NCBI RefSeq assembly: GCF_002854065.1 | Contig: NZ_CP024147.1 | Reading direction: 5' to 3' (one strand) | Origin: Escherichia coli | Lineage (GTDB): Bacteria; Pseudomonadota; Gammaproteobacteria; Enterobacterales; Enterobacteriaceae | Length of the DNA: 64,000 nucleotides | In this document: positions 2,215 through 63,319 of the stretch, in pieces | Layout of the letters: each line of letters opens with the position of its first letter | Numbering within the stretch: the stretch's first letter is position 1 | The notes under the pieces: model-generated | Database searches by the model: none | The model's input: the letters and a program-made list of their open reading frames with translations, nothing else | What the model was told of the DNA's origin: nothing | Translations under genes and position numbers: made by a program

Positions 2215-2777
2215 AGCAAGCGAACATCCACAGCGTCCATGCCTGCTGCACGGGCCGCCTGAATACCGAAATCGGCATCTTCAAAGACCACACACTGCGT
2301 CGGTTGCACGCCCATACGCTGCGCGCACAACAAAAATGTGTCTGGCGCGGGTTTATGGTGTTTGACGTGATCGGCAGCGACGACGGCGTCAAAATAACGG
2401 CGTAATCCCAGGTGCGCCAGCAATGCCTCAGCGATGGCGCTTTCACTCCCCGTTCCTACAGCCATTGGGCGACGACCATGCCAACTTTTCACCACATCAA
2501 CAAGAGGAAGCGGTTCGACGCTATCCAGCAGCATACTTCTGACTGCTTCTGTTTTTTCACGCGCTAACGCATGCGGGTCGAGATCGGCCTGATTCAGCTC
2601 AATAATTGCCTGAGCAATACGCCAGGTGGGCGAGCCATTAAGCGCAATCATTGCCTGAACATCGTACTGAAGACCGTAGTGCCCTAATACTTCGCGCCAC
2701 GCTTTACGGTGCGTAGGCTCCGTATCCAGGATTGTGCCATCCATATCAAAAATTAAACCTGCATAACGCTCGTACAT
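2211..2777 (-). CDS. yqaB: HAD-family sugar phosphatase
   Basis: 188-aa ORF with HAD motif FDMDGTILDTE near the N-terminus; 4-bp overlap with yqaA. Confidence 0.9.
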   Translation of the reverse strand: MYERYAGLIFDMDGTILDTEPTHRKAWREVLGHYGLQYDVQAMIALNGSPTWRIAQAIIELNQADLDPHALAREKTEAVRSMLLDSVEPLPLVDVVKSWHGRRPMAVGTGSESAIAEALLAHLGLRRYFDAVVAADHVKHHKPAPDTFLLCAQRMGVQPTQCVVFEDADFGIQAARAAGMDAVDVRLL

Positions 2778-2921
2778 GGTCTTCTCGCAAGTCGAAAAAT
2801 ATGACGCTACTTTAGCGTAATTGCTTGATTTTGTCGCTGATGGCGAAGGAGAAGAAAATTCAGGAAATGGATAAAGTAGTTATTTAGAAATGAGATATTT
2901 TTGAAGGAAATTTTTTGGAGA

Positions 2922-3057
2922 AGATGGTGCATCCGGGAGGATGACTCACTGGCGTTCGCCCTTCGGGCCGTTGCTAAAGCAACGTTATCCTTCCTGGTGC
3001 CTGCGGTTAATTCCGCTACCTCTTCGATATCTTCATTGCTGAAGATTTCGGAGAATA
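2922..3057 (-). repeat. Repeat unit 1: truncated tRNA-Arg 3' end (2925-2941, 17 nt) fused to a ~116-bp hairpin-rich module, directly abutting the 3' end of the first intact tRNA-Arg
   Basis: TGGTGCATCCGGGAGGA matches the 3' end of the neighbouring tRNA-Arg genes then diverges; module contains palindromes CGTTGCTAAAGCAACG and GCCCTTCGGGC; a second copy is at 3536-3651. Confidence 0.7.
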
Positions 3058-3134
3058 TGGTGCATCCGGGAGGATTCGAACCTCCGACCGCTCGGTTCGT
3101 AGCCGAGTACTCTATCCAGCTGAGCTACGGATGC
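3058..3134 (-). tRNA. argQ: tRNA-Arg (anticodon ACG)
   Basis: Reverse complement gives GCATCCGTAGCTCAGCTGGATAGAGTACTCGGCTACGAACCGAGCGGTCGGAGGTTCGAATCCTCCCGGATGCACCA; copy name assigned by order only. Confidence 0.93.
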
Positions 3135-3236
3135 ATCGGGAAAATTTATTTTACTGCTGATATTGATATCGCTACTAAAGCCATATCAAATAAGAAAATC
3201 CATCTTAACCATCATCACTGATGATTACGGAGAATA

Positions 3237-3313
3237 TGGTGCATCCGGGAGGATTCGAACCTCCGACCGCTCGGTTCGTAGCCGAGTACTCTATCCAGCT
3301 GAGCTACGGATGC
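3237..3313 (-). tRNA. argZ: tRNA-Arg (anticodon ACG)
   Basis: Identical 77-nt tRNA-Arg sequence; copy name by order only. Confidence 0.93.
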
Positions 3314-3375
3314 ATCGGGAAATTTATTTTACTGCTGATATTGATACCGCTACTAAAGCCATATCAAGTAAGAGA

Positions 3376-3452
3376 TGGTGCATCCGGGAGGATTCGAACC
3401 TCCGACCGCTCGGTTCGTAGCCGAGTACTCTATCCAGCTGAGCTACGGATGC
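3376..3452 (-). tRNA. argY: tRNA-Arg (anticodon ACG)
   Basis: Identical 77-nt tRNA-Arg sequence; copy name by order only. Confidence 0.93.
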
Positions 3453-3535
3453 ATCGGGAAACTTACTTTACTGCAGATTTTTTGATACCGCTACTAAAGC
3501 CGTATCAAGTAAGAGATGGTGCATCCGGGAGGATT

Positions 3536-3651
3536 ACTCGCCTTGCGGCTCGCCCTTCGGGCCGTTGCTAAAGCAACGTTATCCTCCCTGGTGCCTGCGG
3601 TTAGTACCGCCACCTCTTCCATACCTTCATCGCTGAAGGTTACGGAGAATA
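3536..3651 (-). repeat. Repeat unit 2: truncated tRNA-Arg 3' end (3536-3554, 19 nt) fused to a ~97-bp hairpin-rich module, directly abutting the 3' end of the fourth tRNA-Arg
   Basis: TGGTGCATCCGGGAGGATT then divergence; same CGTTGCTAAAGCAACG / GCCCTTCGGGC module as unit 1. Confidence 0.7.
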
Positions 3652-3728
3652 TGGTGCATCCGGGAGGATTCGAACCTCCGACCGCTCGGTTCGTAGCCGA
3701 GTACTCTATCCAGCTGAGCTACGGATGC
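3652..3728 (-). tRNA. argV: tRNA-Arg (anticodon ACG)
   Basis: Identical 77-nt tRNA-Arg sequence, 3 bp from tRNA-Ser. Confidence 0.93.
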
Positions 3729-3731
3729 AAA

Positions 3732-3824
3732 TGGCGGTGAGGCGGGGATTCGAACCCCGGATGCAGCTTTTGACCGCATACTCCCTTAGCAGGGGAGCGC
3801 CTTCAGCCTCTCGGCCACCTCACC
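3732..3824 (-). tRNA. serV: tRNA-Ser (anticodon GCU)
   Basis: Reverse complement gives GGTGAGGTGGCCGAGAGGCTGAAGGCGCTCCCCTGCTAAGGGAGTATGCGGTCAAAAGCTGCATCCGGGGTTCGAATCCCCGCCTCACCGCCA with long variable arm. Confidence 0.93.
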
Positions 3825-3886
3825 ACACGCCTCTTACGAGTGCTTCGAAGAACTTGTTTATCGCTCATCGTCGCTGCGTGGCGCAC

Positions 3887-3914
3887 ATATTACTTTCTGA
3901 GACTTATAAGTCAA
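3887..3914 (-). promoter_or_regulatory. Putative sigma70 promoter of the serV-arg tRNA operon (-35 TTGACT, 16-bp spacer, -10 TAATAT, GC-rich discriminator)
   Basis: Motifs read on the minus strand about 55 nt upstream of the serV 5' end. Confidence 0.55.
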
Positions 3915-4140
3915 ACAATTTTTCCCACACTTTTATCGTTTGCACACTTCACGCTCAATTAGTCTGTAAAAACGTCAAAAAGAGTGTTTTATCAACAGAA
4001 AAAACGGAAGTCTGACAGATAGCAGTAATGTAAAAAAATGGAGACTTAAGTTGAATGAACGGGAGTAAAGCGAAAAGACTATAGAGTGAAGGAGAAATTT
4101 TGAGGGTGCGTCTCACCGATAAAGATGAGACGCGGAAAGA

Positions 4141-8073: not shown

Positions 8074-9214
<1,141 letters not shown>

Positions 9215-9712
9215 TCAAGTGTTTTGTAGAAATTGTTGCCACAAGGTCTGCAATGCATACGCAGTAGCCTGACGACGCACCGCATCACGGTCGCCGCTGA
9301 AGCATTCCCTCCGGGTAATGCCTTCACCGCGGGCAGTGGCAAAAGCAAACCAGACGGTGCCGACAGGCTTCTCTTCACTGCCGCCATCCGGCCCGGCGAT
9401 ACCACTAATAGACACGGCATAATCAGCACGAGCCGCTTTCAGTGCACCTATCGCCATTTCCACCACGACGGGTTCGCTCACCGCGCCATGCTGCGCCAGC
9501 GTCTCTTCGCGTACGCCGATCATTTGCGCTTTGGCTTCGTTACTGTAGGTGACAAATCCGCGTTCAAACCAGGCGGAACTGCCGGCAATATCGGTAATCA
9601 CTTTCGCTACCCAACCGCCGGTACAAGACTCAGCAGTTGTTACGGTTGCGCCACGGGCTTTCAGCGCCTGCCCAACCTGTTCGCTTAACTGCATCAGTTC
9701 ACTGTCAGTCAT
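9215..9712 (-). CDS. pncC: NMN amidohydrolase (CinA-like C-terminal domain)
   Basis: 165-aa ORF MTDSELMQLSEQVGQALKARGATV. Confidence 0.9.
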   Translation of the reverse strand: MTDSELMQLSEQVGQALKARGATVTTAESCTGGWVAKVITDIAGSSAWFERGFVTYSNEAKAQMIGVREETLAQHGAVSEPVVVEMAIGALKAARADYAVSISGIAGPDGGSEEKPVGTVWFAFATARGEGITRRECFSGDRDAVRRQATAYALQTLWQQFLQNT

Positions 9713-10942: not shown

Positions 10943-11179
10943 GAGGGGTCCATTTAACAGATTCAACCAGGGGCAAGTATGGTAAAGCATCACGCCCCGC
11001 ACAAGGAAGCGGTAGTCACTGCCCGATACGGACTTTACATAACTCAACTCATTCTCCTCGCTATCCTTTTACTCAAACTTTCAAATTAAAATATTTATCT
11101 TTCATTTTGCGATCAAAATAACACTTTTAAATCTTTCAATCTGATTATATTAGGTTGCCGTTTGGTAATAAAACAATAA

Positions 11180-12717
<1,538 letters not shown>

Positions 12718-12727
12718 AGGCTGAAAC

Positions 12728-13882
<1,155 letters not shown>

Positions 13883-13889
13883 TCAACAG

Positions 13890-13952
13890 CGGAGATCCGT
13901 TAAGGATCTCCGTGAGACTAATAGAATGCCTGATGCGCTACGCTCATCAGGC
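13890..13952. repeat. Two perfect/near-perfect stem-loops in the srlD-gutM spacer (CGGAGATCCgttaaGGATCTCCG; REP-like GCCTGATGcgctacgcTCATCAGGC)
   Basis: Inverted repeats read directly from the sequence. Confidence 0.7.
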
Positions 13953-13987
13953 ATACAGGACTTCCGCCACTACATTAAGGAAAAGTT

Positions 13988-14347
13988 ATGGTATCCGCAC
14001 TCATCACTGTCGCCGTTATCGCCTGGTGTGCGCAACTGGCCTTAGGCGGCTGGCAAATTTCTCGTTTTAACCGTGCCTTCGACACACTATGCCAGCAAGG
14101 GCGGGTTGGCGTGGGCCGTTCCAGCGGGCGCTTTAAACCGCGGGTCGTGGTCGCCATCGCCCTGGACGATCAGCAGCGCATCGCCGACACCTTGTTTATG
14201 AAAGGACTGACCGTCTTCGCCCGACCGCAAAAAATTCCCGCAATTACCGGTATGCATGCGGGTGATTTACAGCCCGATGTGATCTTTCCCCATGATCCAC
14301 TATCACAGAATGCTCTATCATTGGCGCTTAAACTGAAACGTGGATAA
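13988..14347 (+). CDS. gutM: Glucitol operon activator GutM
   Basis: 119-aa ORF in operon position. Confidence 0.9.
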   Translation: MVSALITVAVIAWCAQLALGGWQISRFNRAFDTLCQQGRVGVGRSSGRFKPRVVVAIALDDQQRIADTLFMKGLTVFARPQKIPAITGMHAGDLQPDVIFPHDPLSQNALSLALKLKRG

Positions 14348-14413
14348 TTTCGTTGTGAATGTTACTTGCTTGCGAAGTTATCATTTTGAAACCTAAATCA
14401 GGTAATCACGCCC

Positions 14414-16145: not shown

Positions 16146-17656
16146 TCCTTCAATCCCAGACGTTTCGCCAGCCGATGCAGGTTGGCGACGTCGGTTTCCA
16201 GCATTCGCGCGCAGGCTGCCCAGTTGTGATGATTTTGTGCCAGTGCCTGACGAATAGTTTCACGCTGGAACGCTTCTGTCGCTTCACGCAGGTTTTGCTT
16301 AACAACGGGCACCGCCGCCGCTTCTGGCGGCGGTAACGTCACCTCAGGAAAAGCAAAATGTTGCGCCTCAAGAATCACTTCATCGCCGTTGCGGGTGGCT
16401 CTCGCCAGAACTACCGCCCGATGAATAGCATGTTCCAGTTCGCGCACGTTTCCCGGAAAACTGTAGTGTTGCAGTAAATTTCGCGCTCCGGCACTTAATA
16501 CCACGCGGGAGAGCCCCTGCCGCAAACGACACTGCTCGCAGAAATACCCCGCCAGCAGAATGACATCATCGCCCCGCTCACGCAGCGGCGGCACCGAAAG
16601 TGGAAACACGCTCAGGCGGTGGAACAAGTCAGCGCGAAATCGCCCTGCCAGCACCTCTTCGCGTAAGTCGCGGTTAGTCGCCGCCAGCACGCGCACATCG
16701 ACCCGCAAACTACGGTCATCGCCAACGCGCTGAATATCGCCATACTGCAACACCCTCAGCAGCTTGGCCTGCAATGCCAACGACAACTCGCCGATCTCAT
16801 CCAGAAACAGCGTGCCGTTATCCGCCATTTCAAACTTCCCACTGCGGTTACTGATAGCGCCAGTAAACGCTCCTTTCACATGCCCGAACAACTCACTTTC
16901 CGCCACACTTTCCGGCAGTGCGGCACAGTTGAGATAGACCAGCGGATTCACCGCCCGTGGCGAGGCCTCATGAATCGCTTTCGCCACCAGCTCCTTACCG
17001 GTTCCCGTCTCACCGCTGATCAGGACGTTGAGATCGGACGCCGCCACAATCTCAATCTCTTTTTTCAGTTGCGTCATGCCAGGGGACAAGCCAATCATCT
17101 GCGTCTGTTTCACCGCTTCAAATGGAGCGGCATCGCCCGGCAACATATTCTGGCTTTCCAGTTGCTCAATCAGCAACGCATTGCTTAACGCTCCCGCCGC
17201 CAGCGCGGCAATCAGGCGTAACTCTTCGTCGCTGAAAACATCGAACTGATCGGGCTGCATCCCGTCGAGCGTCAATGCGCCGATCAGGTTTTGCCCGGCA
17301 AACAGCGGCAGACCAACGCAGGCGTGAACCTTCAGACTCTCCTGCCCTGGAATCAAACCGTCATAGGGATCGGGCAATTCGCTGTCTGCGGGAAAGCGCA
17401 CCACATCACCCGCGCGGGCAATCGCTTCCAGCCGTGGATGACCTTCCAGCGCAAAGCGTCTACCGAGTACATCCTTCGCCAGCCCGTCGATGGCAAGCGG
17501 AATAAACTGCCGCGAGTCGTAACGTAGCAACGCAGACGCATCGCACTCCAGCACCTGACGCAGCGTGGTGATCAGGCGCTGAAAACGATCCTGATGACCA
17601 ATCCCACGCTGCAATTCGATGGCGATATTCGCCAGCACATCAACGGAAAAACTCAT
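16142..17656 (-). CDS. norR: Sigma54-dependent NO-responsive regulator NorR
   Basis: ORF with GAF domain, AAA+ motif GETGTGKE and GAFTGA, C-terminal HTH; start set at [14 protein letters not shown] (504 aa); stop overlaps gutQ stop by 4 bp (convergent). Confidence 0.95.
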
Positions 17657-20412: not shown

Positions 20413-20539
<127 letters not shown>

Positions 20540-27782: not shown

Positions 27783-27870
27783 GCAACCGTGCCGGATGCG
27801 GCGTGAACGCCTTATCCGGCCTACATAGTTCGTGCGACATGTAGGCCCGATAAGCGCAGCGCATCGGGCA
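27783..27870. repeat. REP/BIME palindromic repeats downstream of ascB
   Basis: gtgccggatgcggcgtgaacgccttatccggcctac and gtaggcccgataagcgcagcgcatcgggca. Confidence 0.85.
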
Positions 27871-42863: not shown

Positions 42864-42874
42864 GCGCCTTATTT

Positions 42875-42897
42875 GCCGGAGAGTATGGCTCTCCGGC
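42875..42897. terminator. Bidirectional terminator hairpin between the molbindin gene and convergent ygbA
   Basis: GCCGGAGAGtatggCTCTCCGGC stem-loop with T-rich flank. Confidence 0.7.
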
Positions 42898-42901
42898 AGA
42901 T

Positions 42902-46094: not shown

Positions 46095-46100
46095 TAACAA

Positions 46101-46135
46101 TTCCCGATAGAAAAATACTATCGGGAATATTATCT
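46101..46135 (+). terminator. mutS rho-independent terminator
   Basis: TTCCCGATAGaaaaatacCTATCGGGAA hairpin followed by a T-rich tract. Confidence 0.7.
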
Positions 46136-46199: not shown

Positions 46200-46856
46200 A
46201 TGCCATCTACACGCTATCAAAAAATCAATGCCCATCACTATCGCCATATATGGGTCGTTGGTGATATTCATGGTGAATATCAGTTATTACAATCCCGCTT
46301 ACATCAACTCTCTTTTTTCCCCGAAACCGACTTACTTATTTCTGTCGGCGATAATATTGATCGTGGGCCGGAGAGTCTTGACGTCCTGCGCCTGCTAAAC
46401 CAGCCCTGGTTTATCTCCGTTAAAGGCAACCACGAAGCAATGGCGCTGGATGCGTTCGCGACCGGCGATGGCAATATGTGGCTTGCCAGCGGTGGTGACT
46501 GGTTCTTTGAGTTAAATGATATGGAACAAAAAGAAGCTATAGGTCTATTGCTGAAATTTCATCAACTTCCACATATTATTGAAATTACCAACGACATTAT
46601 AAAATATGTCATCGCACATGCGGATTATCCGGGCAATGAATATCTCTTTGGCGGACAAATAGCGGAGAGCGAATTACTTTGGCCTGTTGATCGTGTGCAG
46701 AAATCTCTTAATGGCGAGTTACAACAAATAAACGGCGCTGATTATTTTATATTTGGACATATGATGCTTGATAACATTCAGACGTTCGCTAACCAGATTT
46801 ATATTGATACCGGATCGCCGAAAAGCGGGCGGCTGTCATTTTATAAAATAAAGTAG
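46200..46856 (+). CDS. pphB: Serine/threonine protein phosphatase 2 (calcineurin-like)
   Basis: 218-aa ORF with GDIHG and GNHE metallophosphatase motifs. Confidence 0.93.
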   Translation: MPSTRYQKINAHHYRHIWVVGDIHGEYQLLQSRLHQLSFFPETDLLISVGDNIDRGPESLDVLRLLNQPWFISVKGNHEAMALDAFATGDGNMWLASGGDWFFELNDMEQKEAIGLLLKFHQLPHIIEITNDIIKYVIAHADYPGNEYLFGGQIAESELLWPVDRVQKSLNGELQQINGADYFIFGHMMLDNIQTFANQIYIDTGSPKSGRLSFYKIK

Positions 46857-46857
46857 T

Positions 46858-46883
46858 CTCATGCTTCTTCTGTGAAGCATGAG
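46858..46883. terminator. Bidirectional terminator hairpin between convergent pphB and ygbI
   Basis: CTCATGCTTCttctgtGAAGCATGAG perfect stem-loop. Confidence 0.65.
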
Positions 46884-52912: not shown

Positions 52913-52943
52913 AAAAAGGTCCGATGAGCATCGGACCTTTTAT
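52913..52943. terminator. Bidirectional terminator between ygbN and the convergent decarboxylase operon
   Basis: AAAAAGGTCCGATGagcaTCGGACCTTTTATTT, stem-loop flanked by A-run and T-run. Confidence 0.75.
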
Positions 52944-62713: not shown

Positions 62714-63319
62714 TCAGGATCTGATAATATCGTTCTGTCTCAACAGATCTAATAATTGCTGTACCAAATTTGTTACTAATTGTTCACCATTGAGATGAAT
62801 TTCTGCCGATTCAGGCGCTTCGTAAACGGAATCTATTCCCGTAAAGTTGCGCAGTTCACCGGCACGCGCTTTCTTATATAAGCCTTTTGGATCGCGGGCT
62901 TCGCAAATCGCCAGCGGCGTATCGACAAACACTTCGATAAAGCGCCCTTCTCCTACGCGTTCGCGAACCATCTGGCGTTCGGCGCGGTGTGGCGAGATAA
63001 ATGCAGTCAGCACCACCAGTCCGGCTTCAACCATCAAATTCGCCACTTCACCGACGCGACGGATATTCTCTTTACGATCGGCATCGCTAAAACCGAGATC
63101 GCTGCATAATCCGTGGCGAACATTGTCGCCATCCAGCAGATACGTACTGACGCCGAGTTTATGTAACGCCTCCTCCAGCGCCCCGGCGACCGTTGATTTA
63201 CCGGACCCGGAGAGGCCGGTAAACCACAACACTACACCACGATGACCGTGGTGTAGCTCGCGTTGTTGCACAGTGACCGGATGGCTATGCCAGACGACGT
63301 TTTCGTCATGCAGCGCCAT
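62714..63319 (-). CDS. cysC: Adenylyl-sulfate kinase
   Basis: 201-aa ORF with P-loop GLSGSGKST. Confidence 0.97.

Follow-up and report, generated by a model that had tools for sequence, protein, structure and literature searches.

As semi-mobile repeats, REPs build up at any site that tolerates them, and the presence of a REP alone is therefore no proof of function. Within operons, they have been described as stabilisers of mRNA 3' ends, classically at malE-malF (Newbury et al. 1987), and an attenuation of transcription associated with BIMEs has been described as well (Espeli et al. 2001; both as cited in Dar and Sorek 2018). According to Dar and Sorek 2018, the ends of Rho-dependent transcripts lie immediately behind stable stem-loops that have no U tract, 24% of which are REPs. 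Termination itself takes place further downstream, and PNPase and RNase II trim the transcript back to the stem-loop, which protects it (Dar and Sorek 2018).

Here, we compare these systems with the 105-nt spacer between srlD and gutM (13883-13987 in sequence coordinates) in the sorbitol operon of Escherichia coli, within a window that comprises the whole stretch of 64,000 nucleotides that was analysed. The spacer contains two adjacent hairpins, here called hairpin 1 and hairpin 2, the second of which is a REP element. As in the stabiliser at malE-malF, the REP is placed between a highly needed upstream block and the downstream genes, with an RNA 3' end past the stem and an excess of upstream RNA. 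Unlike malE-malF, the srl spacer contains only one REP, upstream of which lies a unique hairpin that is not a REP, the allele in the window has a CATAC tail and has lost the canonical CCTAC, and the role as a stabiliser is a putative one. The similarity to the Rho-dependent protected ends (Dar and Sorek 2018) extends to a stem with no U tract, a 3' end downstream of it, a read-through that is sensitive to bicyclomycin and a mild downstream excess of C over G, but the srl site lies inside an operon and shows partial polarity, rather than being located at the end of a gene.

The hairpins in the spacer are also ~13 nt apart, as in the systems with BIME attenuation and in the REP325 BIME RNA naRNA4 (Rfam RF02564), and in the naRNA4 model hairpin 1 falls in the slot of the Y-type REP and hairpin 2 in the slot of the Z-type REP. 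However, the srl spacer scores 19.5 bits against this model, compared to a gathering score of 59.5. A classification as a BIME, which consists of at least two REPs in alternating orientation, was rejected because of this low score and because hairpin 1 is a single-copy sequence with no similarity to REPs.

Organization of the spacer between srlD and gutM

The lengths of the open reading frames and the RefSeq annotation of E. coli DNA that matches the window exactly or nearly so give the gene order srlA-srlE-srlB-srlD, spacer, gutM-srlR-gutQ, with the TGA stop codon of srlD at 13880-13882 and the ATG of gutM at 13988 (Table 1). The hairpins are thus located between the last structural gene for sorbitol and the regulatory genes, as in the original prediction, which was also exact in its coordinates for a perfect 9-bp stem at 13890-13912 followed by a palindrome at 13928-13952 when these were checked on the sequence. 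The region is 100% identical over 161 nt to the O157:H7 and O55:H7 genomes, and it was found in 5405 of 5426 complete E. coli genomes. Aligned to the spacer in K-12, a comparison suggested along with the prediction, the spacer in the window is the same except for one base in a loop and an indel of 1 nt in the linker.

Table 1. Coordinates of genes and spacer features in the window
Feature	Position	Strand	Basis
srlD CDS, sorbitol-6-phosphate dehydrogenase, 259 aa	13103..13882	+	ORF list; RefSeq annotation of identical or near-identical DNA
Hairpin 1	13889..13913	+	Sequence, RNAfold
Candidate sigma-70 promoter TTAAGG-16-TAGAAT, 8/12 matches; predicted start ~13934 in the REP 5' arm	13900..13927	+	Own scan
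Unpaired linker, 12 nt, GAGACTAATAGA; one A fewer in K-12	13914..13925	+	Fold and K-12 alignment
Hairpin 2, REP element; core palindrome 13928-13952 = GCCTGATGCGCTACGCTCATCAGGC	13926..13954	+	Sequence, fold, REP match
Equivalent of the K-12 RNA 3' end	13957..13957	+	Adams et al. 2021, supplementary files 1 and 3, mapped via K-12 alignment
3' portion of the spacer, unstructured, slightly rich in C and poor in G, with the gutM Shine-Dalgarno AAGGA (13977-13981)	13958..13987	+	Fold, composition
gutM CDS, 119 aa, first regulatory gene of gutM-srlR-gutQ	13988..14347	+	ORF list; RefSeq annotation

The spacer as a whole is strongly structured, with a fold z-score of -5.2 to -5.6. In random Markov-1 sequence, perfect hairpins of at least 9 bp are expected about 2.6 times per 64 kb, which corresponds to ~0.004 per 105 nt, and both of the hairpins in the spacer are beyond chance. 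The part of the spacer downstream of the REP shows little pairing in the RNA fold, and the C/G ratio is 1.3 at positions 13955-14035, as compared to 0.94 at the end of srlD. This part of the spacer is a possible loading zone for Rho or entry zone for an RNase. No repeat features of any kind are listed over 35 kb of the RefSeq annotation table for K-12. A stretch of 15 nt in srlA (11290-11304) is 93% complementary to 13879-13893, which covers the stop codon of srlD and the foot of hairpin 1, but this is one of 45 such pairs in 5.5 kb and is probably due to chance.

A single-copy hairpin next to the stop codon of srlD

Hairpin 1 starts 6 nt downstream of the srlD stop codon. Its perfect 9-bp stem is formed by CGGAGATCC (13890-13898) and GGATCTCCG (13904-13912), which enclose the loop GTTAA (13899-13903), and according to RNAfold it is lengthened by a pair between G13889 and U13913. 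The predicted energy is -18.5 kcal/mol (z = -6.5), and none of 200 shuffled sequences was equally stable. Hairpin 1 is present in every Escherichia clade retrieved and absent from the other genera, and 5408 of 5426 E. coli genomes have it at a single place. No further copies were identified in the window, in the operon, including the srlA promoter region, or in the 5426 E. coli genomes, and the possibilities that it belongs to a repeat family or represents a shared operator were rejected for lack of a second copy in these searches. Nor was any similarity to REPs detectable.

Three stem variants in total were observed across Escherichia, namely C13898T, which is present in ~1067 E. coli genomes, A13906G, which is found in Escherichia sp. 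E1V33, and U13913C. All three still pair on the mRNA strand, either as G·U or as G-C, and two positions in the loop also vary. The changes are all one-sided, and no two-sided compensatory change was seen in the stem among 12 Escherichia spacers. The chance that three neutral transitions would all retain the pairing is about 1 in 4, and the covariation evidence for hairpin 1, as judged from these variants, is weak.

Positions 13844-13920 were matched to the NiCo-AnGGAG riboswitch (Rfam RF03164) with a score of 26.9 bits, as compared to a gathering score of 64.5 bits, and this candidate was rejected. The match shares the flanks CAGC.GAG...CUC.GUGAGAC around hairpin 1. In the alignment, only one helix pairs, and this helix is hairpin 1 itself; another helix contains five non-pairs, and the match overlaps the coding sequence of srlD. 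We judged the match to be due to chance because the other helices do not form and because of the overlap with srlD. In Rfam searches with the operon and the spacer, this match and the one to naRNA4 were the only hits, both of them below threshold, and in both it is the hairpins that carry the match.

Hairpin 2 is a REP element

Hairpin 2 is extragenic and forms 12 pairs with one internal mismatch in the allele found in the window. Its predicted energy is -18.2 kcal/mol (z = -4.8), and equally stable structures were found in 0 of 200 shuffled sequences. The core is identical at 24 of 25 bases to GCCTGATGCGCTACGCTTATCAGGCCTACG, which serves as a known REP in the study by Durrant et al. 2024, and the whole element is identical at 27 of 29 bases to the known REP GCCTGATGCGCTACGCTTATCAGGCCTAC(G). 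Relatives of hairpin 2 occur at a median of at least 40 places per E. coli genome, with the counts representing minimum values in 3787 records. Hairpin 2 is thus a true REP element. The original prediction had only called it REP-like, and the copy number, the match to a published REP and the use of the site as a target by IS621 (see below) give this description a firmer footing.

In other E. coli lineages and in other species of Escherichia, this site has exactly the canonical REP sequence. The GTAG/CTAC head is not retained in the window and in K-12, both of which read CATAC where the canonical sequence at this site is CCTAC, so that this allele is a point-mutated derivative of the canonical REP. 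Two changes distinguish the derived allele: T13945C replaces a G·U pair by G-C, and two further pairs result from C13953A. The predicted energy is thereby lowered to -18.2 kcal/mol, as compared to -13.2 kcal/mol for the canonical allele in other Escherichia, a gain of 5 kcal/mol. As estimated from identity bands, the derived allele is present in roughly 63% of the complete genomes.

The two changes also destroy the CCTAC tail and the CT core used by IS621, a REP-specific recombinase element guided by a bridge RNA, with ATCAGGCCTAC as a documented natural target and CT as the core. In E. coli SCU-301, which has the canonical allele, an IS621 element is inserted within this very REP and is joined at the end of ...ATCAGGCCT. 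The insertion (2533-3917 in locus L075) corresponds to 13946-13956 in the window and separates srlD and gutM by ~1.3 kb. The locus as such is therefore a target of IS621, but the allele in the window and in K-12 reads ATCAGGCATAC, without the CT core, and would be expected to serve poorly as a target, judging from its sequence. Other canonical REPs or REP pairs, which were used as family comparators, are located in the window at ~20438-20516, 27790-27865, ~21650 and ~22849.

An RNA 3' end downstream of the REP in K-12

To learn where transcripts end in this spacer, we used the Term-seq data for K-12 published by Adams et al. 2021 (PMC7815308), which contain a 3' end on the plus strand at position 2828590 of NC_000913, supported by 4666 reads. 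The equivalent position in the window (Table 1) is located 3 nt downstream of where the REP stem closes and 31 nt upstream of the gutM ATG, and the flanking sequence printed in the study places the end after ...CATCAGGCATACA, immediately before GG. At hairpin 1, no RNA 3' end is included in the Term-seq lists for K-12 in Adams et al. 2021.

The DirectRNA-seq data from the same study, counted in 800-nt windows, show 585 reads upstream of the site and 197 downstream in the absence of bicyclomycin, as compared to 309 upstream and 199 downstream in its presence. The coverage thus drops ~3-fold across the site without bicyclomycin, and a drop of 1.55-fold is left when Rho is inhibited, where these data are from K-12 grown in LB, in which the sorbitol operon is barely induced, and not from the strain of the window. 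Consistent with this increased read-through, the site has a Rho score of 1.91, which is moderate, and was flagged as a significant region of Rho termination (Adams et al. 2021). In K-12, the REP thus has the features of a protective stem-loop, with a stable stem that is not followed by a U tract and with a 3' end directly behind it.

Neither of the hairpins is a classical terminator, because they are not followed by a U tract. The 10 nt downstream of each stem contain two Ts, as compared to a U-rich tract of ~7-8 nt in intrinsic terminators, a consensus scan identified no terminators or promoters in the spacer, and the intrinsic-terminator score given by Adams et al. 2021 is 1.51, below the threshold of 3. 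A classification as intrinsic terminator was rejected on these grounds.

These results bear on the original prediction that the two hairpins set the expression of gutM-srlR-gutQ relative to srlAEBD by partial termination or protection of the 3' end. The prediction had pointed to Term-seq data as evidence, and the published K-12 data place a 3' end past the REP, with unequal amounts of RNA on its two sides. For the REP, the prediction is supported by this 3' end and by the read counts of 585 and 197, but for hairpin 1, at which no 3' end is reported, it is not. Likewise, the Rho-associated 3' end at the REP agrees with the proposed mechanism, with the qualification that the termination component depends on Rho and is not an intrinsic termination driven by a hairpin.

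A possible promoter within the spacer

The best promoter-like match in the spacer is TTAAGG-16-TAGAAT, which is weak and falls below the threshold of the standard scan. A genomic SELEX study, performed in vitro, reported a binding peak for the RpoD holoenzyme between srlD and gutM, for which no hexamers were given. Furthermore, the 3' ends in supplementary file 3 of Adams et al. 2021 were kept only if there was a transcription start site (TSS) located 21-200 nt upstream, as determined by dRNA-seq. This filter implies that there is an internal TSS 21-200 nt upstream of the 3' end in the spacer. The examined supplements of the Cappable-seq and SMRT-Cappable-seq studies contain no entry for the spacer site. 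A promoter at this position could contribute to basal expression of gutM-srlR-gutQ, or it could yield a short RNA that ends at the REP. Since the implied TSS is close upstream, the 3' end may belong in part to such a short, internally initiated RNA.

Comparison of the spacers across enterobacteria

To examine the conservation of the spacer, we performed a scan based on GutM with one genome per species, which identified 70 loci. From the retrieved loci, 68 spacers between srlD and gutM were extracted, giving a total of 69 with the window included, and they represent Escherichia, ~20 further named enterobacterial genera and some unclassified genomes. The spacers could not be aligned between genera, yet nearly all are strongly structured, with a median fold z-score of -3.8 and 86% of the 69 spacers below -2. 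In 47 of the 64 spacers that contain a stable local hairpin, the first such hairpin starts at most 15 nt past the stop codon.

The identity of the structures differs between the genera. The spacers in Citrobacter, Salmonella, Klebsiella and Kosakonia contain REPs, either singly, as a pair or in arrays that reach 612 nt, and the spacers in Trabulsiella, Pluralibacter, Enterobacter, Lelliottia, Cedecea and Buttiauxella contain GC-rich hairpins that are unique and unrelated. In Kosakonia cowanii (L051:1889-2500) and Phytobacter ursingii (L066:1951-2500), tandem arrays of REP pairs (BIMEs) have lengthened the spacer to 550-612 nt.

The spacer between gutM and srlR has a near-invariant sequence and is not unusually structured, with a median z-score of -1.3. 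The difference between the structured spacer after srlD and the unstructured spacer after gutM supports, but does not prove, that it is the structure rather than the sequence that has been retained after srlD.

Possible functions of the spacer

We consider it fairly likely that the spacer acts within the operon as a module for polarity and mRNA stability, of a kind already known. The best reading of the data is that Rho terminates part of the transcripts and that exonucleases then trim the RNA to the REP, which protects the srlAEBD mRNA. We prefer this reading because the 3' end and the Rho data for K-12 fit the pattern described by Dar and Sorek 2018 and because the spacer in K-12 is near-identical to that in the window. 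Transcripts from the srlA promoter would pass through srlD and into the untranslated spacer, where Rho would terminate a fraction of them downstream of the hairpins, or the RNA would be cut there. Exonucleases acting in the 3'-5' direction would then trim the RNA until they are halted by the stem-loop of the REP, and the srlAEBD mRNA would keep a protected 3' end 3 nt beyond the stem. Hairpin 1, which is equally stable and located 6 nt from the stop codon, would most likely act as a second, stop-proximal barrier to exonucleases. As an outcome, the message for the transporter and the dehydrogenase would be more abundant and longer-lived than the message for gutM-srlR-gutQ. We thus infer that the hairpins cause the 3' end and the difference in expression. 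Points in favour of the module are that both hairpins are non-random and that the derived changes in the REP raise its stability by 5 kcal/mol, and points against it are that the Rho score is moderate, that the downstream excess of C over G is weak (1.3) and that there is no two-sided covariation. The level of gutM-srlR-gutQ may also be set by the internal promoter and by the spacer before srlR, which is a probable promoter or operator.

An alternative that we find unlikely is that the hairpins are tolerated passengers, with a selfish or neutral REP, an old relic in the form of hairpin 1 and a 3' end that is an unselected by-product with no meaningful effect on expression. The wide differences in REP content between genera, from none to arrays of 550-612 nt, would be consistent with this, as would the lack of two-sided covariation and the strain with IS621 at this site, in which RefSeq annotates gutM, srlR and the other srl genes as intact around the insertion. 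However, lineages with no REP still have a stable, unique hairpin at the same stop-proximal spot, the adjacent spacer between gutM and srlR has no such structure, both derived changes strengthen the REP stem, and the measured drop in coverage is real. It is quite unlikely that the spacer mainly houses an internal promoter for constitutive, low-level expression of gutM-srlR-gutQ, with which the palindromes overlap, although such a promoter would be compatible with the module. The SELEX peak for the RpoD holoenzyme, the TSS implied by the filter and the match to TTAAGG-16-TAGAAT, whose -35 element would lie in the hairpin 1 loop and whose start would lie within the REP, point in this direction, but the match is weak and below the scan threshold, its spacing is only 15 in K-12, the SELEX table gives no hexamers for the peak, and a promoter accounts neither for the 3' end just after the REP nor for the effect of bicyclomycin. 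Distinctly unlikely, in our view, is that hairpin 1 and the REP form a discrete, stable small RNA that ends at 13957 and has a function of its own, or that the slot for a hairpin has been kept by selection in the Enterobacteriaceae. Such a small RNA may be derived from the trimmed 3' UTR of srlD or from a transcript that starts at the implied TSS at most 200 nt upstream, and it may, for example, be associated with a protein, like the REP-derived naRNAs, or be a regulator of the 3'-UTR-derived kind. In the milder version, selection may act on the stop-proximal slot after srlD, with its occupant being repeatedly swapped between a unique hairpin, a REP and a REP array.

Three further explanations concern the nature of the hairpins themselves. 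The GC-rich stems have a stability similar to that of real terminators, and a T-rich tail is located behind the hairpin in a few other genera (for example, at loci L032, L041 and L043), as would be expected if one or both hairpins were leaky intrinsic (Rho-independent) terminators. In Escherichia, however, there is no U tract, with two Ts in 10 nt, the terminator scan was negative, the published score is 1.51 and thus below 3, and read-through is raised by bicyclomycin, all of which make this very unlikely. An effect on translation seems very improbable as well. Hairpin 1 would in this case slow the termination of ribosomes on srlD and thereby lower the output of SrlD via stalling and tmRNA, an effect that Liang, Rudd and Deutscher are said to have reported in 2015 for REPs located at most 15 nt from stop codons. 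The distance of 6 nt between the stop codon and the hairpin is within this range, as are the distances in 47 of the 64 spacers in which a stable local hairpin is present, but stalling would lower the expression of the upstream structural gene, and what was measured is an excess of upstream RNA, which is in the opposite direction. The palindrome of hairpin 1 is perfect over 23 bp and holds two Dam sites (GATC), and it could in principle be bound by a protein at the DNA level rather than form an RNA structure. This is extremely improbable, since C13898T and A13906G break the symmetry of the DNA and yet retain the pairing in the sense-strand RNA as U·G, and similar sequences are found neither near the srlA promoter nor elsewhere in the window or in the 5426 E. 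coli genomes. The variants in hairpin 1 thus speak against a DNA-binding site of symmetric form.

In the sorbitol operon, the genes for its own activator and repressor follow the structural genes. How much structural message is made relative to regulatory message is therefore part of the control logic of the operon, and the spacer between srlD and gutM is an obvious place for setting this ratio. With the preferred reading of partial Rho-dependent termination and trimming to the REP, the site would provide a clean natural example of how a REP and a unique hairpin define a Rho-associated 3' end inside an operon. The same position is also filled by unrelated hairpins in different enterobacteria. 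The site adds no new principle, and the srl spacer is an ordinary case, not discussed before, of a mechanism that is well known. A literature search for publications specific to the spacer between srlD and gutM found no relevant one, and the expression table in a study of APEC gives only an operon-level value for the sorbitol genes.

Other features in the operon and in the window

In the spacer between gutM and srlR (14348-14413; L002-L071 equivalents), the sequence TTTCGTTGTGAA...CTTGCGAAATTATCATTTCGCAAC is near-invariant across the retrieved enterobacterial genera. It contains an inverted repeat, TTGCGAAAT/ATTTCGCAA, which is degenerate in E. coli, and it has TCATTTTG in common with the region upstream of srlA at 11102-11119. 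The spacer is probably an operator or a promoter for srlR. In Citrobacter and Salmonella (L013, L015, L023 and L027), it is interrupted by insertions of 70-200 nt, the ends of which are ERIC/IRU-like (…GAGTTGCAGG… / …GCAGCTTGAAGTATGACGGGTA). The srlA coding sequence contains a small hairpin with a T run behind it at 11412-11435 (CGTGCATTGGCACG TTTGTCTTTT), and this hairpin, which may act as an attenuator within the gene, coincides with a published Term-seq 3' end in K-12 (2826058).

Other perfect hairpins of at least 9 bp in the window are located at 9194-9215, 16311-16334, 42874-42898, 46100-46128, 46262-46282, 46858-46883, 52914-52941 and 63232-63256. The palindrome at 9194-9215 (ATACTGTATGCTCATACAGTAT) resembles a LexA box upstream of recA, and the hairpin at 52914-52941 has A4/T4 flanks like those of a bidirectional terminator.
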